A stretch of DNA of 64,000 nucleotides, from the NCBI GenBank assembly GCA_964510315.1, contig CAZEAP010000014.1, positions 25,242 to 89,241 of the forward strand, in the 5' to 3' direction. The notes below the pieces were generated by a model. It was not told the DNA's origin and searched no databases. It saw only the letters and a list, made by a program, of their open reading frames with translations. A program made the position numbers and the translations under genes. Below are positions 4,132 through 44,999 of the stretch, piece after piece. This DNA comes from an uncultured candidatus Brocadiaceae bacterium. Lineage in GTDB: Bacteria > Planctomycetota > Brocadiia > SM23-32. The first letter of the stretch is position 1; each line of letters begins with the position of its first letter.

Positions 4132-5490
4132 GTGCCCCCGCTGGCCTATCTTGCGGATGACACCGCGCTCTTCAGGGAGATTCTCGACATGGCCCCGACG
4201 GTAAGACGACCTGCTCAGCCGGACGTTCCGGTGCTGCACGAAGTCGACGTCATAGTTGTGGGCGGCGGGCCGGGAGGGATCGGCGCCGCCGTGGCCGCCG
4301 CCCGGCAGGGCGCCTCCACGCTGCTTTGCGAGCAATACGGGTTCCTCGGCGGGATGGCCACCGCCGGATTGGTCAACCCCTTCATGCCGAACCATCTGGA
4401 CGGGGAGTGGTTGGACTCCGGCGTCTTCACCGACTGGCTGGAGGTTATGGACGAGATGGGAGGGCTGTCCGACGACGGCCGGACATTCTGCCACGAGACG
4501 GCGAAGCTGGCCGCCGAGAAGCTCTGTCTGGACGCCGGGGTCGAGCTGCTCTACCACGTCCGGCTCGACGTCCCCCTGATGACCGGACCTCGCATCAACT
4601 CCGTGGTGATGCTCGGAAAAAGCGGGCTCACCGCGCACCGCGCCGAGGTCTACGTGGACGCCACGGGCGACGCCGACCTGGCCGCGCGCGCCGGCTGCGA
4701 ATACACGTTCGGCCGGCCGGAGGACCAGCAGGCGCAGGCCATGACCACCTGCTTCGACCTGGCCGGGGTGGAGCCCGAACGGATGCCCGACGGGCAAACG
4801 ATCAACGCCCTCTACGATACGGCCCGGGAGGAAGGGCGGCTGGAGTGCCCCCGCCAAAACGTTCTGTGGTTCAGGAGCGTCGAGAAGGACCGCATCCACT
4901 TCAACACCACCCGGATTCTCCGGCACAAGGCCACCGACACGCTCTCCCTCTCCGAGGCCGAGATGGAGGGCCGCCGCCAGGTGCTGGACTACCTGAGATT
5001 CCTGCGCCGGGACGTGGCCGGCTTCGAGAATGCACGGCTGCACGCCATCGCGGTGAATGTCGGCGTTCGAGAGTCCCGGCACGTCCGAGGCCACGCTTTG
5101 CTGACCCGTGAGGACTTCGAGGACGCCGCCAAGTTCCCCGACGGCATCTGTCGGGTCAACTACCCCATCGATATCCACAGCCCCACCGGCGGCGACACCG
5201 AGCACGCACACCTGCCGAAAGGCGAGTGGTACGAGATTCCCTACGGCTGCCTCGTCGCGCGCGACTGTGACAACCTGCTGGTCGGCGGACGGCCGATCAG
5301 CGTGGACCACGCCGTCCACAGTTCGATGCGGGTGATGCCGCCGGCCTGCACGGTGGGCCAGGCCGCCGGGACGGCCGCCGCGATGGCCGTCGAAAGCGGC
5401 GTCCCGCCGGCCGAGATCGACGGCCGGGACGTGCGCCGCAGCCTGATCGAGCAGGGCGTCTGGCTGGACGAGGTCGCGCGCTCCACCTGA
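4132..5490 (+). CDS. FAD-dependent oxidoreductase
   Basis: Rossmann dinucleotide motif VIVVGGGPGGIGAAVAAARQG close to the N-terminus. Start may be the internal ATG at 4189. Confidence 0.75.
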   Translation: MPPLAYLADDTALFREILDMAPTVRRPAQPDVPVLHEVDVIVVGGGPGGIGAAVAAARQGASTLLCEQYGFLGGMATAGLVNPFMPNHLDGEWLDSGVFTDWLEVMDEMGGLSDDGRTFCHETAKLAAEKLCLDAGVELLYHVRLDVPLMTGPRINSVVMLGKSGLTAHRAEVYVDATGDADLAARAGCEYTFGRPEDQQAQAMTTCFDLAGVEPERMPDGQTINALYDTAREEGRLECPRQNVLWFRSVEKDRIHFNTTRILRHKATDTLSLSEAEMEGRRQVLDYLRFLRRDVAGFENARLHAIAVNVGVRESRHVRGHALLTREDFEDAAKFPDGICRVNYPIDIHSPTGGDTEHAHLPKGEWYEIPYGCLVARDCDNLLVGGRPISVDHAVHSSMRVMPPACTVGQAAGTAAAMAVESGVPPAEIDGRDVRRSLIEQGVWLDEVARST

Positions 5491-5566
5491 GGGGGCGGGA
5501 AGGTTCGGCGGTTCGACCGGAGAGGACTATAATCACGGTTCTCGTCCCCGCAGGAGGAAACGCGGC

Positions 5567-6628
5567 GTGCTTGAACGTTGCCTCGATGACCTTGAAGCCC
5601 GGATCGACCCGGAGGTCGAGCGGGACATCCACCGGCGGTGGGTGGAGTTCACCGACGGGGACTTCGAGGGGGACGTCTTCAGCCCCGGCAGGCCGGAGCC
5701 GGCTCCACCGGCGGTGGAATGGCCGAAGGTCCCTGTGAACCGCGCGATCGAGGACTTCGACGCGATGGCGCTCGGCCAGCTTGCCGGCTGCTCCCGCGTG
5801 CTGGCGGAGGCCGGTGGCTCCCTGCTGTGCGTGCGCTGCAACTACGGCACCGGCATCCTGCCATCGCTCTTCGGAGCCGAGTTGTTCATGATGCCGGAGG
5901 AGACCAACACGCTGCCCACGGTCCGTCCCCTGGAAGGCGGCGCGGACGCGGTTCGGGAGCTGCTGGACCGCGGCGTACCCGACCTCACGGCCGGCCTCGG
6001 GGGGCAGGTCTTCCGCATGGCCGAACGGTTCCTGGAGATTGGGCGGGCCCGGCCGAAGGTCAGCGAACACGTCCACCTCTATCACCCCGACACTCAGGGC
6101 CCGATGGACGTCTGCGAGCTGCTCTGGGGGAGCGGACTGTTCACCGCCATCGTGGACGAGCCGGCGCTGGTGCAGGCACTGCTGGAGCTGGTCACCGAGA
6201 CCTACGTTCGCTTCATGAGGAGGTGGGAGGCGCTCGTGCCGTTCGAGAACGGCCACAACCCCCACTGGGGCCTGATGCACGGGGGGCGGATCATGCTGAG
6301 GGACGACTCGGCGATGAACTTCTCACCGGAGATGTTCCGCGAGTTCATCCGGCCTTACGACCAGCGCCTGCTGGAGGAGTTCGGCGGCGGGGCCGTGCAC
6401 TTCTGCGGCAGGGGCGATCACTACATCGATCAGGTCGCCGGGATGCGGGGCGTTTACGCCGTAAACCTCTCGCAGCCGACGTACAACGAGATGGAGCGCA
6501 TATTCCGACATACCGTGGACAGGGAGATCAACATCATCGGCCTGCCGGCCGAAGCGGCCCGCCAGGCCGTGGAGCGCGGCCGAGATTTGAGAGGGCGCGT
6601 TCACGCGACCGCCGGCCCCGTCCCTTGA
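5567..6628 (+). CDS. hypothetical protein (possible URO-D/MtaA-like fold)
   Basis: GTG start after a GGAGGAAACG RBS-like stretch. Coherent codon usage. HFCGRGDHYIDQVAGMRGVYAVNLS segment loosely resembles the HxCG region of the uroporphyrinogen decarboxylase family. Confidence 0.5.
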   Translation: MLERCLDDLEARIDPEVERDIHRRWVEFTDGDFEGDVFSPGRPEPAPPAVEWPKVPVNRAIEDFDAMALGQLAGCSRVLAEAGGSLLCVRCNYGTGILPSLFGAELFMMPEETNTLPTVRPLEGGADAVRELLDRGVPDLTAGLGGQVFRMAERFLEIGRARPKVSEHVHLYHPDTQGPMDVCELLWGSGLFTAIVDEPALVQALLELVTETYVRFMRRWEALVPFENGHNPHWGLMHGGRIMLRDDSAMNFSPEMFREFIRPYDQRLLEEFGGGAVHFCGRGDHYIDQVAGMRGVYAVNLSQPTYNEMERIFRHTVDREINIIGLPAEAARQAVERGRDLRGRVHATAGPVP

Positions 6629-10264: not shown

Positions 10265-11626
10265 ATGAAAGACGAACTGCTTGACCTTTGCGGAAAGCTG
10301 CCGGCCGATTACGCCGAGGTGCGCCTGCAGGAAGGCGTCTCCACCAACATCCACTACTCCGGGGAGGAGCTGGAAGACATCGGGGAGCGCACCCAGCGCG
10401 GCGGCTGCATCCGCGTGCTGAAGGACGGCGGGTGGGGCTTTGCCACTTTCAACGACGTGGATGCGATGGAGGAGTACGCCCGCCGGGCGGTGCGGCAGGC
10501 GGAGCTGGTGGGCGGGGAGAAGTTCGAACTGGCGCCCGTCGAGCCGGTGCACAGTACTTACAGGACTCCGGTGGACACCGACCCCGCCGAAGTGCCCCTG
10601 GAGGACAAGCAGGGCATGTGCAACCGCTACAACCGGGCGGTGCTCGCCCACGATCGTATCCAGAGCAGCATCGTGATCTACCGGGACCGCCACGCCACGC
10701 TCCATTTCGCCAACTCCGAGGGAACCTGCATCGAGCAGGAAATCGTCTTCACCGGCGCAATGGTCGCCGCCATCGCCGTGGAGGGCAGCAACGTGCAGCG
10801 GGCACGCGAGGACAACGGCGACCTGACCGGCTTCGACAAGGTCACCCGCATGGACGAAGCCTGCGAGCAGGTCGTCGAGCGGGCCATCGAGTCCCTCGAC
10901 GCCGAACCGGTGGATGCGGGCGCCTATACCGTCATCGCCGACCCCCGGCTCTGTGGAGTGTTCGTGCACGAGGCGTTCGGGCACCTCAGCGAAGCGGATT
11001 TCCTCTACGAGAACCCCCGCATGCGGGAGATCATGCAGATAGGGCGGCGCTTCGGGCCCGACTTCCTCAACATCACCGACGACGGCTCCATCGAGGGTGA
11101 GGGGGGCTTCGTGCCCTTCGACGACGAAGGCGTGCCCGGCTCGCGCACCCCGCTGATCAAGGACGGCGTGCTGGCCGGCCGGCTGCACAACCGGGAGACG
11201 GCCGCCAGGATGGGGGAGGAGCCCACCGGCAACGCCCGCGCCATATCCTACCGCCACCCTCCCATCGTGCGCATGACCAACACGTTCATGGAACCCGGCC
11301 AGACGCCCTTCGAAGAGATGCTCGGCGAAACGGAGGACGGCATCTACGCGGTGAGCTGGCTGGGCGGCCAGACCGACAGGGAGATGTTCACCTTCAGTGC
11401 CGAGGAGGCATACCGCATCCGGGCCGGCCGCATCGCGGAGAAGATCCGGGACGTCGTCCTGACCGGCAATGTGTTCCAGACCCTCCAGAACATCGACTGC
11501 ATTGGCTCGGACTTCGAGATGAAGGGTGGCCTCGGCGGCTGCGGCAAGGGCGGGCAGTCTCCCTTGAGGGTCGGCGACGGCGGTCCGCACTGTCGCATCC
11601 GGAACGTGGTCATCGGCGGAAGGTGA
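10265..11626 (+). CDS. tldD: TldD family metalloprotease
   Basis: HEAFGH zinc-binding motif and the overall TldD/PmbA fold pattern. ATG at 10265 (MKDELLDL) preferred over the upstream in-frame start. Confidence 0.85.
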   Translation: MKDELLDLCGKLPADYAEVRLQEGVSTNIHYSGEELEDIGERTQRGGCIRVLKDGGWGFATFNDVDAMEEYARRAVRQAELVGGEKFELAPVEPVHSTYRTPVDTDPAEVPLEDKQGMCNRYNRAVLAHDRIQSSIVIYRDRHATLHFANSEGTCIEQEIVFTGAMVAAIAVEGSNVQRAREDNGDLTGFDKVTRMDEACEQVVERAIESLDAEPVDAGAYTVIADPRLCGVFVHEAFGHLSEADFLYENPRMREIMQIGRRFGPDFLNITDDGSIEGEGGFVPFDDEGVPGSRTPLIKDGVLAGRLHNRETAARMGEEPTGNARAISYRHPPIVRMTNTFMEPGQTPFEEMLGETEDGIYAVSWLGGQTDREMFTFSAEEAYRIRAGRIAEKIRDVVLTGNVFQTLQNIDCIGSDFEMKGGLGGCGKGGQSPLRVGDGGPHCRIRNVVIGGR

Positions 11627-11743
11627 GGTGGCGTCCTCCTCGTCGCCCTCGTCCTCGTCTTCAGCCCGAGAGGATAAACAGCGAGGACGAGGTCGAGGAC
11701 GAGTGCGATTGCTGAACGGAACCGAATCCAACAGGGGAGACGA

Positions 11744-13060
11744 ATGGACGACAACAGGGCCGAACAGATTCTGGACGCTGCACGCGACCGTTTCGACGCC
11801 GCCGAAGTCTTCGAAGAGACCTCGGAGACCATCAGCGTGAGCTTCGAGGACAACCGCCTCAAAGAGATCCAGTCCCGCCAGCGGCGCGGCGTCGGTCTGC
11901 GCGTGATCCAGGAGGGGCGGATCGGCTTTGCCTCCACGACCGACCTTCGGGAGGCGGAACCCCTGCTGCGGATGGCCGCCGCCAGCGCGGAATTCGGGGA
12001 CGAGGCGGAATTCGAGTTCCCCGGCCCGCCGGAGGAGATGCCGGGCCCGGGACTCTACGACGACGAGATGGAAGAGGTCGGTGCCGAGGAGATGGTGGAG
12101 ATCGGCCGGGAGGGACTGGCCCTCAGCCGGGAGGCCGACGAGGATTGCCTCTACGCCGCGCACCTGAACCGTTCACTCCGGCGGCAGCGCGTTCTGAACA
12201 GCAGCGGACTGGACCTATCCTACCGTTACAGCCGGATGTCGGCCGACGTTGAGGTGCAGAAGCTCGGCGAGAGCGGCCTCCTCCAGATATACGAATATAG
12301 AACCTGGGGGCGGCCGTTCGACTCGGTGGCCCCCCTGACCGGGACGGTTCTGGGGAAGATGCGGGACGCCGCCACCATCGCGCCGACCCGCCCCGAAGAG
12401 ATGCCGATGATCTTCACGCCGAAGTGCATCCGCACCCTCCTCCAGCCCGTCGAGGTGGCCCTCAACGGAAAGCGGGTCCACAAGGGCTCCTCGGTGCTGC
12501 GGGGTAGAATCGGCGAGCAGGTGCTGGATGAGCGGCTGACCCTGACCGACGATCCCGGCATGGATTTCGCCCCCGGCAGTTGCCCGGCCGACGACGAGGG
12601 GGTGCCCGCCCGCCGGCGGGAGCTGTTCGAGGACGGCGTCCTGCGCACGTATCTCGCCGACCTCCAGACCGCCGGACTGCTGGGCATAGAGCCAACCGGC
12701 CGCGGGTTCAGGAGCTACGCCGGTCGCCCGTCTCCGTCCACCACGAACGTGCTGATCGCACCGGGGGATACGCCGCTGGAAGATATGCTGGAGGGTATGG
12801 GGCGGGGGCTGATCATCGACCAGACGCTCGGCTCCGGCCAGAGCAACGTGCTGGCCGGGGAGTTCAGCATCAACGTCGGGCTGGGGTTCCTGGTCGAGGA
12901 CGGCGAGGTGCAAGGCCGGGTCAAGGACTGCATGGTGGCCGGGAACGTCTACGAGGTGCTGGGCCGGATCGAGGCACTGGGCACCGAGGCGGACTGGTTC
13001 GGCAGCATCTGCGCGCCGCCCGTCATGGTCGGCGGGCTCAAACTGGCCGCCCAGGGGTGA
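11744..13060 (+). CDS. pmbA: TldE/PmbA family protein (partner of TldD)
   Basis: Paralogous to the preceding gene (GxC...DDEGVP, MV(A)GN motifs) but lacks the HExxxH. This is the classic tldD-tldE tandem. Confidence 0.85.
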   Translation: MDDNRAEQILDAARDRFDAAEVFEETSETISVSFEDNRLKEIQSRQRRGVGLRVIQEGRIGFASTTDLREAEPLLRMAAASAEFGDEAEFEFPGPPEEMPGPGLYDDEMEEVGAEEMVEIGREGLALSREADEDCLYAAHLNRSLRRQRVLNSSGLDLSYRYSRMSADVEVQKLGESGLLQIYEYRTWGRPFDSVAPLTGTVLGKMRDAATIAPTRPEEMPMIFTPKCIRTLLQPVEVALNGKRVHKGSSVLRGRIGEQVLDERLTLTDDPGMDFAPGSCPADDEGVPARRRELFEDGVLRTYLADLQTAGLLGIEPTGRGFRSYAGRPSPSTTNVLIAPGDTPLEDMLEGMGRGLIIDQTLGSGQSNVLAGEFSINVGLGFLVEDGEVQGRVKDCMVAGNVYEVLGRIEALGTEADWFGSICAPPVMVGGLKLAAQG

Positions 13061-13070
13061 CGGTCCCTTC

Positions 13071-13582
13071 ACCACGGAGGCACGGAGGACACGGAGAACG
13101 GCAACGGAAAGGCGGGTCATGGGACGACCTCAACGGAGTGGCAGGATGCTGTTATCGGACGACATAACCGAACAGGTGATCGGTGCTGCGGTGGAGGTGC
13201 ATAGGGAACTCGGCCCGGGCTTGCTTGAGTCCGTATACGAGGAAGCACTGTGCCATGAACCGTCTCTCCGCGAGGTGGCTTTCGCGCGCCAGGTGCCCGT
13301 GCCAATCAGCTACAAAGGCGTCAACCTGGGCAGCGACTGCCGCATTGATATCCTTGCGGAGGATACGGTCATCGTGGAACTCAAGGCAGTCGCAGAAGTC
13401 CTCCCGGTGCACAAAGCGCAGTTGCTGAGCTACATGAGACTGAGCGGAAAGCAGGTTGGCCTTCTACTGAACTTCAACGTCGCCGTGCTGAAGGACGGTA
13501 TCGTGCGACGTGTGCTGTAGGTTGCTCGCCGTTGTTGCCCCCCACTCGTTCCGTTCTCCGTGTCCTCCGTGTCTCCGTGGTT
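13071..13582. mobile_element. putative miniature mobile cassette: GxxExxY gene bounded by 31-bp near-perfect terminal inverted repeats
   Basis: 13071-13101 ACCACGGAGGCACGGAGGACACGGAGAACGG. The reverse complement of 13551-13582 is AACCACGGAGACACGGAGGACACGGAGAACGG. Identity is 30/31. Confidence 0.55.
13146..13520 (+). CDS. GxxExxY family protein (PD-(D/E)xK nuclease-fold, selfish-element-like)
   Basis: Defining motif GPGLLESVYEEAL (G-x-x-E-x-x-Y). About 125 aa. Flanked by 31-bp inverted repeats (see findings). Confidence 0.7.
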   Translation: MLLSDDITEQVIGAAVEVHRELGPGLLESVYEEALCHEPSLREVAFARQVPVPISYKGVNLGSDCRIDILAEDTVIVELKAVAEVLPVHKAQLLSYMRLSGKQVGLLLNFNVAVLKDGIVRRVL

Positions 13583-13694
13583 TTTTCGGGTTGCCATAAG
13601 GTACGTACGCTCCAGGGCTTGCGGCGTCGGCGTGCATTTCCCTTCCCGCATCCGGGACAATGTGGGTCGCCAGGCCTTTTGCAGGGAACCGGAT

Positions 13695-14573
13695 ATGCCT
13701 CCCGATCCGTCGGATGGGACAGCAGACGCCGCCCCCGCCAAGTGGATGGACACCATCTTCTGCGAGGACTGCCTGGCGGGCATGCGCCGCCGCCTCCCGG
13801 ACGGCTCCGTGGACGTGATCGTCACCTCCCCGCCCTACAACATCGGCGTGGCCTACGACAATCATTGCGACGACCTGCCCTTCGAGGAGTACCTGGACTG
13901 GATGGAGGAGGTGGCCGGGGAGTGCCGCCGGGTGTTGGCCGAGGATGGCTCCCTTTTCTTCAACATCGGTGACAAGCCGTCCGACGAGTTCCGTTCCCTT
14001 CGGGTCGCCAGGCGCCTCGGCCGGCACTTCCACCTCCAGAACACCGTCCACTGGGTCAAGTCCATCGCCGCCCCCGAACGGGACGTCAACATGGGCCACT
14101 ACAAGCCGGTCAACAGCGACCGGTTCCTCAACAACTGTCACGAGTATATCTTCCACTTCACCCGGACCGGCCGCGTGAGACTCGACAAGCTCGCCGTCGG
14201 CGTGCCCTACCGGGATAAGAGCAACATCGGGCGCTGGAAGTTCACCCGCGAGCGGGGGGAGCGGAGAACGGACTGTCGCGGTCGCGGCAACACCTGGTAT
14301 ATACCCTACCGGACCGTCACCGGGGCCAAGCCCCACCCGGCGGCTTTTCCCGACAGGCTGCCGGAGATGTGCATTAAGCTGCACGGCCTCCGCGCTGAGC
14401 CGCCCCTGGCGGTGCTGGACCCCTTCATGGGGACGGGCACCACCGCGGCCGTAGCGGCCCGCCTCGGCTGCCGATGGGTCGGCTTCGAGGTCAGCCCCGA
14501 TTACGTCAAGATCGCCCGGGAACGCATCGAGGAGGCCGCCGAAGCGGCGGACCGCCCCAACAGAGCCGCTTGA
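13695..14573 (+). CDS. beta-class DNA N4-cytosine/N6-adenine methyltransferase (orphan, no cognate nuclease adjacent)
   Basis: Motif IV TSPPYN early, motif I DPFMGTGTT near the C-terminus (circularly permuted beta-class order). ATG at 13695. Confidence 0.8.
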   Translation: MPPDPSDGTADAAPAKWMDTIFCEDCLAGMRRRLPDGSVDVIVTSPPYNIGVAYDNHCDDLPFEEYLDWMEEVAGECRRVLAEDGSLFFNIGDKPSDEFRSLRVARRLGRHFHLQNTVHWVKSIAAPERDVNMGHYKPVNSDRFLNNCHEYIFHFTRTGRVRLDKLAVGVPYRDKSNIGRWKFTRERGERRTDCRGRGNTWYIPYRTVTGAKPHPAAFPDRLPEMCIKLHGLRAEPPLAVLDPFMGTGTTAAVAARLGCRWVGFEVSPDYVKIARERIEEAAEAADRPNRAA

Positions 14574-38584: not shown

Positions 38585-41500
38585 GGTTCCCCCGCACACG
38601 CGGGGATAGTCCCGAGAGAAGCTGCGCGACGAGCGAAAGGCGCGCGGTTCCCCCGCACACGCGGGGATAGTCCCAAAATCAAACCCGGTTGCCAGCCCGG
38701 TGAGTAGGTTCCCCCGCACACGCGGGGATAGTCCTTGCGCCGGGTCGGCCGGAAGGCTCCGGGGGGGGGTTCCCCCGCACACGCGGGGATAGTCCCAAGG
38801 CTGGGAATACCGGCGGGGCTCAGGAGCTGGTTCCCCCGCACACGCGGGGATAGTCCTTGGGGGAAGAGGCAGCACTGCCGGTACGTAGTGGTTCCCCCGC
38901 ACACGCGGGGATAGTCCGCGATGGAGAAACCTGGACCAGCGGGGCACCGCGGTTCCCCCGCACACGCGGGGATAGTCCGCGACTGAAGGCCGTGACGCAG
39001 GAAATGCCCCCGGTTCCCCCGCACACGCGGGGATAGTCCGCGGATTGGGAATCGGCGGGATACAAAACGGGGGGTTCCCCCGCACACGCGGGGATAGTCC
39101 CGAGGCGGGGCAGTGGGCGCTGGCGGCGATGAAGGTTCCCCCGCACACGCGGGGATAGTCCGTAGCCGCTCATCTCAACTCCTCGCTCTGGCGAGGTTCC
39201 CCCGCACACGCGGGGATAGTCCCGGCGGTGCACGGGCCTGACACGCGGCGTGCAGGGTTCCCCCGCACACGCGGGGATAGTCCGCGGGTGTGGACGGCAA
39301 TCAAGGACCTGGCGAGGGTTCCCCCGCACACGCGGGGATAGTCCCCAACGTGCGATCGAGCTGACCCTGACTGGCCTGGTTCCCCCGCACACGCGGGGAT
39401 AGTCCTTTTGTTGGAGGAACAAAAGGCTCTGAGGGAGTGGTTCCCCCGCACACGCGGGGATAGTCCCCCGAGACTTTAACTGCATACGTGCATCCTATTG
39501 GTTCCCCCGCACACGCGGGGATAGTCCGTGACAGTACCATCGCCGACCAGAACGCCGACGGGTTCCCCCGCACACGCGGGGATAGTCCCTTACTGCTGTT
39601 GAAATGCCGACCGCTTCTCGTGGTTCCCCCGCACACGCGGGGATAGTCCTTGCGAGCCTTGCTGTTCGGCAGGCCCTCGACGGGTTCCCCCGCACACGCG
39701 GGGATAGTCCCGCTGGCATGTACTGGCCCGGGGGAGGAGCCCAGGTTCCCCCGCACACGCGGGGATAGTCCGATGGTCCAACGCAAACGCTTTGCGTTGT
39801 CCTTGGTTCCCCCGCACACGCGGGGATAGTCCATTGGTACGGGGGCTCCGGTCAGCGCGGTATCGGGTTCCCCCGCACACGCGGGGATAGTCCTTCTCAT
39901 CTTCTTTGGACTCCTTTTGGGGAAAAGGTTCCCCCGCACACGCGGGGATAGTCCCGGTCTTTTCATCTACGCAATCGAAGTAGATGAGGTTCCCCCGCAC
40001 ACGCGGGGATAGTCCCTTCGGTTTCGTCTGTTGCGGGAACGTGCCCTTGGTTCCCCCGCACACGCGGGGATAGTCCCATCCGGCCTCCAAAGCTTGACAC
40101 TGCCCTACCGGTTCCCCCGCACACGCGGGGATAGTCCTTCTCATCCGCCTCCAACCCGTACACGAACAAAGGTTCCCCCGCACACGCGGGGATAGTCCGT
40201 CCTTTGTGGGCAAGGGGTTATGACGTGCAATGGTTCCCCCGCACACGCGGGGATAGTCCCCAGCTTTTCCCCAAAAGGAGTCCAAAGAAGATGGTTCCCC
40301 CGCACACGCGGGGATAGTCCCCTTGCGGAATCGACAGATAGCGAGCCCAACCAGGTTCCCCCGCACACGCGGGGATAGTCCCCTTCCGAACCTACTGCGT
40401 GAAAACTGGACAGAGGTTCCCCCGCACACGCGGGGATAGTCCCACCCCCTCGATCTTCGCGGCCGCCCACTCGAAGGTTCCCCCGCACACGCGGGGATAG
40501 TCCCGGGAGACAGACTGATGGCACTGACGGCAGCGAGGTTCCCCCGCACACGCGGGGATAGTCCCGTAGACCTCTCCAGTCCAGTCCAGCATCGCCGGGT
40601 TCCCCCGCACACGCGGGGATAGTCCATCCGGAGCTTGGTCAATCTGTTTCGGATCTAAGGTTCCCCCGCACACGCGGGGATAGTCCCCAGCTCCCAGCAC
40701 GTTGCGCACAGCCGGGCTCGGTTCCCCCGCACACGCGGGGATAGTCCCCTACTCTTACGGGAGGACGCCGATGGCCGATGGGTTCCCCCGCACACGCGGG
40801 GATAGTCCCCGGGCGAAGCTCGTGCCGAAGATACCGGGGTCGGTTCCCCCGCACACGCGGGGATAGTCCCTCGCCGGCCTCCAGGTCCGTCGTGGGGCAC
40901 TCGGTTCCCCCGCACACGCGGGGATAGTCCGCCTTATTACCTGAAGCGCGATTTACGCGAGGCGGTTCCCCCGCACACGCGGGGATAGTCCGAGATAGCG
41001 GATTACTTCCGTGGCGGTTGTCTGGGTTCCCCCGCACACGCGGGGATAGTCCCTATCCGCCCGCATAGCCCTTGTGCTAACCCTGGGTTCCCCCGCACAC
41101 GCGGGGATAGTCCTCGCAAAAGATCAAGGCCCCGGGTTCCAAGCAAGGTTCCCCCGCACACGCGGGGATAGTCCTCACGAAGACGGACGTTGAGAGGGCC
41201 CTTAAAGGGTTCCCCCGCACACGCGGGGATAGTCCCTCAGCCATTTGACCCCCCCATATGGATAACTGGGTTCCCCCGCACACGCGGGGATAGTCCCGTA
41301 GCCTTCGAGTAGGCAATGCCGTCGGCGTTGGTTCCCCCGCACACGCGGGGATAGTCCTTCTCCCCCTCCCGGGCGCTGCCGGAGGCACCGGGTTCCCCCG
41401 CACACGCGGGGATAGTCCCCTTGTATAGGTCAACGTACGGAGCCGTTTTCTGGTTCCCCCGCACACGCGGGGATAGTCCGCCGTTGACCGGGCACGTGGC

Positions 41501-44500
41501 GAGGTCGCGGTGGGTTCCCCCGCACACGCGGGGATAGTCCCGGCCAGCCCCGTAATCGTCGTTCCGGTATGCGGGTTCCCCCGCACACGCGGGGATAGTC
41601 CGGTGCGCACGCGCGTGATGCGGCGCGACCTGCGGGTTCCCCCGCACACGCGGGGATAGTCCCACGCCGAGGGTGCCCAGCACCTCCGTCAGGCTGGTTC
41701 CCCCGCACACGCGGGGATAGTCCCGCATCGGCGTCCGTGGGGTCCGTCATGCTGATGGTTCCCCCGCACACGCGGGGATAGTCCGCGCAGGTCCTCCGGC
41801 CGGGCGCCACCCTCGAGGGTTCCCCCGCACACGCGGGGATAGTCCGCGGGTGGACGTGACACCCCGCTACCTCAGCGAGGTTCCCCCGCACACGCGGGGA
41901 TAGTCCCGACGGCCCGGAGTGGGTGATCGAGATCGAGGAGGTTCCCCCGCACACGCGGGGATAGTCCGCGCACGATCGCCCCCCTGCCGGAGGGCATGAC
42001 GGTTCCCCCGCACACGCGGGGATAGTCCGTGTACGACCGCCGGCAGCCGCGGGTCATCGGGGGTTCCCCCGCACACGCGGGGATAGTCCCCTCTACATGA
42101 TATGCACGGTTGCGCATGTCCTGGTTCCCCCGCACACGCGGGGATAGTCCCGGTACTCCCGTCTACGGCATCCCCCTCTCTGCGGTTCCCCCGCACACGC
42201 GGGGATAGTCCTCGCTCCTACACCGGCAACGTCCGGGGACTCGCGGTTCCCCCGCACACGCGGGGATAGTCCCGACGGCATCGAGGGTATCCTTGCCGAG
42301 GTCGTGGTTCCCCCGCACACGCGGGGATAGTCCACTCGCTCGCGGGGTCCGGCGGGGTCTGACCCGGGTTCCCCCGCACACGCGGGGATAGTCCCAGCGT
42401 GTGGCCGGAGCGCTTCCCGGCCGGGGAGGTTCCCCCGCACACGCGGGGATAGTCCGCCTTATTACCTGAAGCGCGATTTACGCGAGGCGGTTCCCCCGCA
42501 CACGCGGGGATAGTCCGAGATAGCGGATTACTTCCGTGGCGGTTGTCTGGGTTCCCCCGCACACGCGGGGATAGTCCCTATCCGCCCGCATAGCCCTTGT
42601 GCTAACCCTGGGTTCCCCCGCACACGCGGGGATAGTCCTCGCAAAAGATCAAGGCCCCGGGTTCCAAGCAAGGTTCCCCCGCACACGCGGGGATAGTCCT
42701 CACGAAGACGGACGTTGAGAGGGCCCTTAAAGGGTTCCCCCGCACACGCGGGGATAGTCCCTCAGCCATTTGACCCCCCCATATGGATAACTGGGTTCCC
42801 CCGCACACGCGGGGATAGTCCCGTAGCCTTCGAGTAGGCAATGCCGTCGGCGTTGGTTCCCCCGCACACGCGGGGATAGTCCTTCTCCCCCTCCCGGGCG
42901 CTGCCGGAGGCACCGGGTTCCCCCGCACACGCGGGGATAGTCCCCTTGTATAGGTCAACGTACGGAGCCGTTTTCTGGTTCCCCCGCACACGCGGGGATA
43001 GTCCTTGGGGGGGTTAGTCGTCGTCCTGGAGTACTGCGGTTCCCCCGCACACGCGGGGATAGTCCCTTCGGTTTCGTCTACGGGAACATGCTGGCCTTGG
43101 TTCCCCCGCACACGCGGGGATAGTCCGATGCTCCAGCGAAGGCGCTTCTGATTCTGCTTGGTTCCCCCGCACACGCGGGGATAGTCCGTCAGGCCCTTAT
43201 TGGCTTGGCTACCGATATTCGGTTCCCCCGCACACGCGGGGATAGTCCCGTAGGGGACGTACACCGCTCCAGATCTGGCCTGGTTCCCCCGCACACGCGG
43301 GGATAGTCCGTAACGGCAGAGGAGCCCAGGGGAAAGAAATCCGGTTCCCCCGCACACGCGGGGATAGTCCCCTGGGCGGGGCAGTCGACGCATCCGCACT
43401 GGAGGTTCCCCCGCACACGCGGGGATAGTCCGTAGCCGCTCATCTCAGCTCCTCGCCCGGGCGAGGTTCCCCCGCACACGCGGGGATAGTCCCTGCTCGC
43501 ACGGGGAGGCAGCGCATACGCTAAAGGTTCCCCCGCACACGCGGGGATAGTCCTAGGGGAACCGGGAGGCAAAGTTCTGGTTCTGGGGTTCCCCCGCACA
43601 CGCGGGGATAGTCCGGTAACAGAACAATAAGGCAGTGAATGAAGGAGGGTTCCCCCGCACACGCGGGGATAGTCCGTGCCCCGGTGCCAGAGGAGCCGGC
43701 GGCGCTATGGTTCCCCCGCACACGCGGGGATAGTCCTCCCGTTTGGATGAACAGCCTTCCCATTCCACAGGTTCCCCCGCACACGCGGGGATAGTCCTCT
43801 ACAGGTTTCTGGACATCCCTCTTACATAGCGGTTCCCCCGCACACGCGGGGATAGTCCCCATCCCTTCTTCGTCTGCATGAAGAAGGAGCTGGTTCCCCC
43901 GCACACGCGGGGATAGTCCCGTGGTTCTTTACACGGAAGTTGTCAGCCTTGAGGTTCCCCCGCACACGCGGGGATAGTCCCCTGATGGCAAAGAACCGTG
44001 AAACCGGACGGGCGGTTCCCCCGCACACGCGGGGATAGTCCCGGTGATGAGGAGTTCATCCCTCTGGCGAATGAGGTTCCCCCGCACACGCGGGGATAGT
44101 CCCGCCGCCGGAGCCGATCCCGTACTCGACAGGCTGGTTCCCCCGCACACGCGGGGATAGTCCCTCAACCTGCACGATCTCATGGCACCAGTCAAGGGTT
44201 CCCCCGCACACGCGGGGATAGTCCTTCTAAAACGTGGCATCCTGCGGTATCTGAGGTGGTTCCCCCGCACACGCGGGGATAGTCCTCCGGCTCAGAGCAG
44301 TTGCTGCCTGCCGCGGAAGGTTCCCCCGCACACGCGGGGATAGTCCTTTGCTATAGCAAACGGTGTGCCAACGTGCCGCGGTTCCCCCGCACACGCGGGG
44401 ATAGTCCCCGCCACCGCCCGCCCTCGAACGCCGGCTGGAGGGTTCCCCCGCACACGCGGGGATAGTCCGCCGTTCCAGGCGGACTGGATCGACGCGAGCC

Positions 44501-44652
44501 GGGTTCCCCCGCACACGCGGGGATAGTCCCGAGCGGGGGCAGTGGGCGCTGGCGGCGATGAAGGTTCCCCCGCACACGCGGGGATAGTCCCGGCCTCACC
44601 AGGCCGCGGAGCAGCGACTGGCGGGTTCCCCCGCACACGCGGGGATAGTCCT
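38585..44652 (+). CRISPR. Type I-E CRISPR array: 100 repeats of 29 bp (GGTTCCCCCGCACACGCGGGGATAGTCCN) with 99 spacers of 32 nt
   Basis: Strict 61-bp periodicity from 38585; the 100th repeat sits at exactly 44624. Repeat hairpin CCCCGC-ACAC-GCGGGG plus an 8-nt 3' handle ATAGTCCN whose last base varies (C/T/G/A). Leader-proximal to cas2, same strand as the cas genes. Confidence 0.95.
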
Positions 44653-44696
44653 TTTGTGTCCCCATTTCCCAAAACAGGCGAAAGGAGAAAGGAAAG

Positions 44697-44876
44697 ATGT
44701 TTAGAAAGCTCAGCCGGTGGTGGTATACAACCGGCCGGAGAATAAGGAAAGGCCGCGCCTTGTGGCACTTAGCCACAGGGCGCCCGGGGCCTTTTGTGTA
44801 TAGGCTCCTGTACAAGGCTTCGTTCCGGATCATCGCACCGGTGATCCGGGGCCTAATCAATCTGTTTCGGGTCTAA
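44697..44876 (+). CDS. small basic protein (59 aa) encoded inside the CRISPR locus between the main array and the terminal mini-array
   Basis: AAAGGAGAAAGGAAAG-ATG strong RBS. MFRKLSRWWYTTGRRIRKGRALWHLATGRPGPFVYRLLYKASFRIIAPVIRGLINLFRV. Lower GC and rare codons (AGA, AGG, ATA, TTA, CTA). Coding frame supported by silent/conservative differences to a matching spacer. Confidence 0.55.
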   Translation: MFRKLSRWWYTTGRRIRKGRALWHLATGRPGPFVYRLLYKASFRIIAPVIRGLINLFRV

Positions 44877-44909
44877 TTGTGCGTGGGTTCCCCGCCAGGC
44901 GGTCGTGCC

Positions 44910-44999
44910 GGTTCCCCAGCACACGCGGGGATAGTCCGTGGGCGAAGGGCTTGAGACGCGTGAGCCTGTCGGTTCCCCCGCACACGCGGGGATAGTCCC
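44910..44999 (+). CRISPR. terminal mini-array: degenerate repeat (C9A, stem-disrupting) - 32-nt spacer - perfect repeat, preceded by a 24-nt repeat-like fragment (44886-44909)
   Basis: GGTTCCCCAGCACACGCGGGGATAGTCCG / TGGGCGAAGGGCTTGAGACGCGTGAGCCTGTC / GGTTCCCCCGCACACGCGGGGATAGTCCC. Separated from the main array by 257 bp of non-repeat DNA. Confidence 0.8.

Follow-up and report, generated by a model that had tools for sequence, protein, structure and literature searches.

In REPIN-RAYT systems, doublets of REP hairpins that carry a GTAG motif occur together with a RAYT, a transposase of the IS200-like HUH/Y1 type, and RAYTs are usually single per genome. Free-standing homing endonuclease genes have no bracketing inverted repeats. 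The intervening sequences (IVS) of 23S rRNA that code for S23p / four-helix-bundle proteins are sporadic, are transcribed within the host RNA and have long been suspected to be mobile; the IVS of Coxiella is about 430 nt long, has a 28-bp terminal stem and one small ORF, and is excised by RNase III (PMC4990558). STRR are tandem 7-nt units that form hairpins inside operons (PMC2670836) and have been described only in filamentous cyanobacteria.

Here we analyze a cassette at 13068-13581 of the window, the whole 64-kb stretch of DNA under study, in which a gene for a GxxExxY protein is bracketed by inverted repeats. Like a 23S rRNA IVS, such cassettes are about 0.4 to 0.5 kb long with a stem of about 28 to 31 bp and a single small ORF, are sporadic and lie within a host RNA, and genes of the four-helix-bundle family are present at the same operon junctions in relatives of the window. 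Unlike an IVS, the cassette is situated at a junction in an mRNA operon, between pmbA and a methyltransferase gene and not inside an rRNA helix; it carries a PF13366 nuclease instead of a PF05635 protein, its arms are tandem heptamers with a TTCACC end, and its stem mismatches hold no RNA-strand signal. Across the collections, cassettes of this kind resemble REPIN-RAYT in having a gene between inverted repeats that also occur as gene-less hairpins (L042 is an example), but the gene belongs to the PD-(D/E)XK and not the HUH/Y1 type, and the repeats are tandem heptamers in place of GTAG. The first-pass annotation also describes GxxExxY genes as multi-copy, which would set them apart from RAYTs. 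The likeness to homing endonuclease genes lies in a small nuclease gene wedged between conserved genes, present or absent at orthologous junctions, lower in GC and transcribed by the host; the cassette differs in its bracketing inverted repeats. A MITE or TIR transposon would share the terminal inverted repeats (31 nt, with a family consensus) and the gene-less short forms, whereas the cassette has neither a target-site duplication nor a transposase domain, and loops without the gene do not derive from it. STRR likewise form hairpins of tandem 7-nt units inside operons, but their unit sequences differ and no associated gene family is reported for them. None of the closest systems joins a PD-(D/E)XK gene with tandem-heptamer inverted repeats.

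The GxxExxY/PDDEXK_3 family is very large (34,415 clusters at 50% identity), of unknown function and annotated in RefSeq by name only. In the literature on GxxExxY, PDDEXK_3, PF13366 and TIGR04256 we found no account of the cassette or its arms, and we could not find a description of the cassette class or of the association between gene and arms in the literature searched, in Rfam or in record annotations.

Anatomy of the cassette

The first-pass annotation had reported near-perfect inverted repeats of 31 bp around one small gene. The repeat search confirmed them: two 31-nt arms, 13071-13101 and 13551-13581, are 97% complementary (30/31) and have 449 nt between them, so that the repeat pair is real and its right arm ends at 13581, not at 13582 as first stated. 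The GxxExxY ORF is the sole sizeable content between the arms and encodes 124 aa (previously given as roughly 125). The T6 run after the right arm (13581-13586) and the neighbors, a PmbA/TldE-type gene upstream and a DNA methyltransferase gene downstream, are also as described there. Two features had been overlooked, the three tandem CACGGAG units that make up each arm and the family-consensus outer end, TTCACC, which starts at 13068. The features of the locus are the following.

11744-13060, pmbA/TldE-type gene, upstream of the cassette
13068..13101, + strand, left arm: TTCACC at 13068-13073; CACGGAG units at 13073-79, 13081-87 and 13090-96; then AACGG
13102..13145, + strand, short leader: GGAG Shine-Dalgarno at 13135-13138, 7 nt before the ATG
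13146..13520, + strand, GxxExxY / PDDEXK_3 gene: 124 aa, intact
13551..13581, + strand, right arm: reverse complement of the left arm (30/31); three CTCCGTG units at 13556-13579
13582..13694, + strand, host flank outside the cassette: T-rich stretch and conserved methyltransferase upstream region (TTGCCATAAGGTACGTACG ... GCGTGCATTTCCCTTCC)

The left-arm units have periods of 8 and 9 nt, and the outer end of the right arm is GGT, a truncation of the consensus GGTGAA. The cassette has the same orientation as pmbA and starts, with TTCACC, 7 nt past the pmbA stop codon. A promoter scan found no promoter-like site in 11400-14000, and the GxxExxY gene is presumably transcribed by read-through from pmbA. 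The interior of the cassette has a GC content of 0.59 compared with 0.67 in the flanks; interior GC is below flank GC in nearly all of 52 cassettes. Searching the 64-kb window for the 29-nt arm core with at most 3 mismatches gave two sites, both of them the arms themselves (expectation from 100 shuffles, 0.00), and the window holds one copy of the cassette. Rfam has no family in the region 12900-13800 at E-values up to 10. The segment is a compositionally foreign, discrete cassette that has conserved terminal inverted repeats and no promoter-like site.

The window also contains a CRISPR array at 38586-44998, with 102 repeats of GTTCCCCCGCACACGCGGGGATAGTCC at a 61-nt period, which is I-E-like and is interrupted by 259 nt at 44652-44910. 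A block of nine spacers at 40931-41452 is duplicated exactly at 42456-42977. The spacers at 39898-39927 and 40264-40293 are exact reverse complements over 30 nt, which indicates acquisition of a single protospacer from each of its strands. None of the window's own spacers matches the cassette.

The GxxExxY protein

Against TIGR04256 (GxxExxY; cut-off, 35), ORF 13146-13520 reaches 143.7 bits, and against PF13366 (cut-off, 22) it reaches 138.4 bits; its family is PF13366, not PF05635. Homologues begin at the ATG at 13146; the ATG upstream, at 13119, is unused among them. Residues G25, E28, Y31, D68, E78 and K80, which constitute the GxxExxY motif and the D...ExK core, are invariant across 40 homologues, and because the catalytic residues are invariant the predicted nuclease looks active. 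The AlphaFold model of the 124-aa protein has a pLDDT of 92.3, and the solved folds nearest to it, at a TM of about 0.5, are those of LHK-Exo, lambda exonuclease and Cas4. As modeled, the protein is a minimal RecB/Cas4-like PD-(D/E)XK core. Searched by sequence, the family profile matches nothing in the PDB; the protein has no match in PHROGs, and PADLOC returned a marginal Cas4 match alone (E = 0.006). A profile search detected no transposase or recombinase domain in the cassette's only ORF, and an enzyme able to mobilize DNA by itself would be expected to be larger than 124 aa.

The same cassette at other loci

To judge by the names of the closest homologues, the window appears to belong to a Planctomycetota MAG related to Brocadiia. 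The nearest homologue, 82% identical, is located in Ca. Brocadiia GCA_046483865.1 (L002) in an unrelated context, with a hypothetical gene on one side and gatC/rpmB on the other. Its arms are almost identical to those of the window (TCACCACGGAGACACGGAGGACACGGAGAACGGCA and its mirror image). When the two loci are aligned, the similarity extends from TTCACC through CCGTGGT, with unrelated sequence on either side; conservation is higher in the arms than in the coding DNA or in the leader (13102..13145, poorly conserved). The presence of the same arms and gene in an unrelated context shows, at the level of these alignments, that arms and gene form a discrete unit at different loci.

Does this design extend beyond the two closest copies? 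We surveyed 80 metagenomic loci with homologues of 50-63% identity, 79 of which had enough flank. The inverted-repeat score between upstream and downstream flanks was at least 30 in 59 of the 79, and the best score from shuffled flanks was 26. Of 53 typed cassettes, 45 had three units in each arm; the period was 8 nt in 58 cases and 9 nt in 45. In these 53 cassettes, conservation drops sharply beyond TTCACC at the left end and beyond GGTGAA at the right end. The units conform to C-R-C-N-G-A-G (CACAGAG, CGCAGAG, CACGGAG, CGCCGAG and others), and the variant is mostly uniform within one element and different between elements. Three isolates have the same arm design, namely, Bacteroides finegoldii (radA, then the cassette), Sphingomonas parapaucimobilis (fabD, cassette, fabG) and Bernardetia, each with an outer TTCACC and usually three 8-9-nt CRCNGAG units mirrored downstream; RefSeq annotates the three genes as "GxxExxY protein" only. 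More distant PDDEXK_3 members (33-43% identity) are without tandem-unit inverted repeats, one in Treponema having a short 11-nt inverted repeat, and the hallmark is therefore limited to a clade of at least about 45% identity and does not extend to the whole of PF13366. For this GxxExxY clade, the survey supports the arms as a hallmark. On Fusobacteria and Prevotella plasmids (L235/L234), distant PDDEXK_3 genes lie between direct repeats, e.g., CAGATTTAATCCGTGTACCTAT on both sides.

Homologues were found in 8 records only of the plasmid collection. At one locus, SpoU-X-RarA, the cassette is stable across related populations. We looked for identical proteins at different loci as a sign of recent transposition and found none; P0040 and P0026 are always at SpoU-X-RarA. 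Orthologous loci differ in unit number, with 5 versus 3 units in the 3' arm. Protein identity is 0.567 for pairs with the same unit variant versus 0.574 for pairs with different variants, a difference at least as extreme in 1336 of 2000 permutations. The unit variant thus does not follow protein similarity, and there is no sign of coevolution between protein and arm. The variation in unit number, together with a variant that is uncorrelated with the protein, indicates that the arms evolve by rapid concerted turnover.

Occupied and empty junctions around pmbA

Even the closest relatives of PmbA reach only about 70% identity, and several of them have the gene order TldD-PmbA-(BNR_2)-methyltransferase. 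The contents of the two junctions in the window and in these relatives are as follows.

Downstream of PmbA, window: GxxExxY cassette
Downstream of PmbA, L226: four-helix-bundle gene between arms of GGTGGAC units
Downstream of PmbA, L203, L204 and L205: BNR_2 gene
Downstream of PmbA, L228: empty
TldD/PmbA junction, window 11633..11703: gene-less hairpin of tandem 6-nt units, CTCGTC... / ...GACGAG
TldD/PmbA junction, L203 and L205: TIGR02436 four-helix-bundle gene between (CTCGTC)n / (GACGAG)n arms
TldD/PmbA junction, L204: GxxExxY pseudogene between AACCAC... arms
TldD/PmbA junction, L226: plain 27-nt spacer

The unit type of the window's own hairpin at 11633-11703 is that of the arms around a four-helix-bundle (23S-IVS-type) gene in two relatives. 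In L226 (GCA_964448935.1), the four-helix-bundle gene downstream of PmbA (5323-5978) has arms of 9-nt GGTGGACNN units, and tandem units that repeat the unit of the 5' arm encode the C terminus of its ORF (…GQGGQGGQSGQ).

The first-pass annotation had named an empty site as a check, and L228 (GCA_012975005.1) provides it: PmbA stands directly before the orthologous methyltransferase gene (76% identity), with about 120 nt after the PmbA stop codon and no cassette. Both L228 flanks align to the window, which identifies the junction as an empty site. A TTCACC is located there (within 5290-5530) 7 nt past the PmbA stop codon, at the same offset as the left end of the window cassette, and may represent either a target motif or the footprint of an excision. 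A palindromic empty target, TTCACCGGTGAA, showed no enrichment in 1.33 Mb of loci. The L228 contig also has a duplication of the PmbA 3' end around "NN," probably a scaffolding artifact. These alignments show that cassettes are present or absent at orthologous operon junctions. The suggestion of a compact mobile cassette is therefore upheld as regards a discrete unit that has been gained or lost (L002 locus, L228 empty site), without the MITE/TIR features attached to it, and the claim that the repeats are no ordinary operon punctuation is borne out by the same arms and gene at an unrelated locus, the empty site and the clade-wide arms.

The gene downstream of the cassette, with a likely start at 13695, encodes an N6_N4 DNA methyltransferase. 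Its position invited the proposal that nuclease and methylase form a minimal selfish pair akin to a restriction-modification system, and in the window the two genes are indeed adjacent and on the same strand, and the methyltransferase matches Type II methyltransferase models. However, in relatives the methyltransferase is syntenic and 76-77% identical without a neighboring GxxExxY gene. The region before it aligns with the same region in L228 and L203, both cassette-free, and the cassette boundary leaves out this conserved region and the gene. In addition, L002 and the other cassette loci with neighbors examined (L204, L206-L225, L230-L231) have no methyltransferase beside the cassette. The two genes are thus not inherited together as a unit, since each occurs without the other. 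These observations contradict the selfish pair, which we regard as highly improbable; judged by its conservation, the methyltransferase is a gene of the lineage and not the partner of the nuclease.

Gene-less hairpins

A scan of species-representative genomes for three CACGGAG units gave at least 120 loci, which span Planctomycetota, Acidobacteriota, Verrucomicrobiota, Gemmatimonadota, Proteobacteria, Chloroflexota, Cyanobacteria, Bacteroidota, Spirochaetota and others. Short hairpins that end in TTCACC / GGTGAA, with 10-300 nt in the loop, make up most of the listed loci. Loop length is bimodal over 1.18 Mb of listed loci, with 81 pairs below 200 nt and 58 pairs at 300-600 nt, the latter being gene-bearing cassettes. 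The gene-less loops are mostly unrelated to one another, and 47 of them, of 60-299 nt, contain no gene remnants; they are therefore not simple deletion derivatives. Rfam detected nothing but tRNAs in 18 loci with gene-less hairpins. In L042, a 135-nt hairpin whose loop is conserved occurs in four copies on the flanks of a GxxExxY gene, and in L113 and L107 hairpins are nested in the loops of other hairpins. The 64-kb window has no gene-less hairpin with CACGGAG-type arms. Intergenic hairpins built from other tandem units are present in L036 (3864-3978, GTGAGCG), L085 (790-870, AATGCAA), L173 (3095-3223, GGACTTATT) and L193 (1224-1372, GACGCCAA), and tandem-unit hairpins may thus be a broader phenomenon.

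The gene-less hairpins raise the question of whether the gene is a passenger, lodged, like the four-helix-bundle genes, in the loop of an autonomous intergenic repeat of the REP or STRR kind that is spread by the host or by an enzyme acting in trans. Such an origin would agree with the excess of gene-less over gene-bearing hairpins (a GxxExxY gene in 5 of 120 loci among the matches listed), with loops that are mostly unrelated and free of gene remnants, with the uncoupling of unit type from protein phylogeny and with the existence of hairpins made of other unit types. Cyanobacterial STRR 7-bp repeats form hairpins within operons, for example, between hupS and hupL (PMC2670836). However, most genes of the GxxExxY clade have the same arm design across phyla, too close and old an association for random capture, and arms and gene are common to the window and L002 as a single unit. 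We consider capture of passenger genes unlikely, although it remains live.

Tests bearing on mechanism

A check for target-site duplications, also named in the first-pass annotation, was negative: across 142 elements, and for k = 2-8 at each of five offsets, the counts were those expected from permutation. Terminal repeats without target-site duplication or transposase speak against a classical MITE or TIR transposon.

The upstream neighbor is co-oriented with the cargo gene at a ratio of 34:10, its stop codon is usually 0-15 nt from TTCACC, and the arms directly adjoin this stop codon on one side and the ribosome-binding site of the next gene on the other. The orientation bias argues against the earlier idea of an invertible segment. 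Long inverted repeats can mediate inversion, and L113 contains nested-hairpin copies with loops in opposite orientation; a phase-variable switch also lacks a recombinase gene nearby. The related idea of a large terminator hairpin for pmbA draws on the T6 run after the right arm, but a 449-nt loop does not make an intrinsic terminator, and the T-rich stretch is also present at the L228 empty site, which assigns the T6 run to the host flank and not to the cassette. The sole terminator-like match is a 5-bp stem inside an arm. Both switch and terminator are contradicted by these data, and we give them hardly any credence.

The copies in L113 (430-710 and 1695-1945) are two nested double hairpins with outer CACAGAG arms and inner CACGGAG arms. 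The inner loops are reverse complements of each other, a comparison weakened by their low-complexity sequence, and this arrangement suggests that inverted-repeat-mediated loop inversion occurs there.

A more serious alternative is that the cassette acts at the RNA level, like a 23S rRNA IVS, with a stem in the operon transcript that is cut by RNase III or insulates the insert and with the nuclease as cargo that plays no role in the arms. The architecture is that of the Coxiella IVS (PMC4990558). In the predicted RNA fold, a 31-bp stem closes the whole cassette (MFE, -254 versus -208.5 kcal/mol for shuffled sequences; z = -6.9). The cassette runs in the direction of the operon and lacks a promoter-like site, its arms fit between stop codon and ribosome-binding site, and TIGR02436 four-helix-bundle (IVS-type) genes occupy the same junctions in relatives between analogous arms. 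However, 43 stem mismatches are G.U compatible on the sense strand versus 45 that are A.C (p = 0.9), which gives no evidence that selection maintains pairing in the sense RNA. This symmetry fits a constraint that would be symmetric between the two DNA strands. Moreover, the arm sequence itself (TTCACC, C.C.GAG) is conserved across phyla, beyond what complementarity demands, upstream ORFs sometimes run through the 5' arm, and the arrival of cassettes at new loci is not accounted for by a function in RNA. The IVS-like RNA model remains live, and we view it as possible but rather doubtful.

The arms contain no stop codons, and upstream genes consequently acquire arm-encoded tails (…NSPRRQGGTE*); in L206/L216 (2950-3000), the upstream ORF reads through the 5' arm. 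Some of the database ORFs P0241-P0256 are 260-295 aa long with two GxxExxY domains and are probably tandem cassettes that are read through. For annotation, this means that stop-free arms extend neighboring ORFs and probably create spurious fusions.

A model for the cassette

On balance, we favor by a modest degree the explanation that 13068-13581 is one member of a widespread class of selfish gene cassettes, promoterless, bracketed by hairpins and similar to IVS and REPIN, and that it was inserted at an operon junction. We infer the following route of mobility. Read-through of the host operon would express the GxxExxY gene, and the arms would serve as the terminal inverted repeats of the element. 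The heptamers and the TTCACC end would be likely sites for binding or cutting by the encoded nuclease or a host factor, on duplex DNA or on an extruded hairpin or cruciform. Cutting would allow copies of the cassette to enter new sites between genes, or gene-less hairpins whose arms match, in a relation like that between REPIN hairpins and the RAYT gene. In RNA, the arms would pair as the 31-bp stem, so that the insert is looped out from the transcript of the operon in the manner of a 23S rRNA IVS, and this stem may incidentally or additionally insulate the insert. The arms are probably cis sites acted on at the DNA level, by the encoded nuclease, and the gene-less hairpins would be their partners or landing sites.

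Several findings weigh against a cassette driven by its own nuclease: target-site duplication and transposase are absent, protein and arms do not covary, the gene-less loops are not simple deletion derivatives, the SpoU-X-RarA locus is stable and the 64 kb hold one copy. The four-helix-bundle genes between analogous arms encode no nuclease, which means that mobilization may be effected in trans by something else.

We tentatively extend the proposal to the whole clade, although we consider this wider hypothesis somewhat improbable. GxxExxY nucleases would be the mobility or maintenance enzymes of hairpin elements, gene-bearing and gene-less, that occur across phyla and end in TTCACC and three CRCNGAG heptamers. 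They would form the PD-(D/E)XK counterpart of REPIN-RAYT and, together with the four-helix-bundle IVS proteins, a guild that colonizes operon junctions and rRNA helices.

In summary, members of a clade within a very large protein family carry a fixed DNA signature and are gained and lost at operon junctions shared with the 23S-IVS protein family. This result brings together three puzzles hitherto viewed apart: the intervening sequences of rRNA, hairpins of tandem heptamers (STRR among them) and small nuclease genes that are scattered. If GxxExxY proteins truly are mobility enzymes, this would provide a function for more than 34,000 protein clusters and an origin for the intervening sequences of 23S rRNA.
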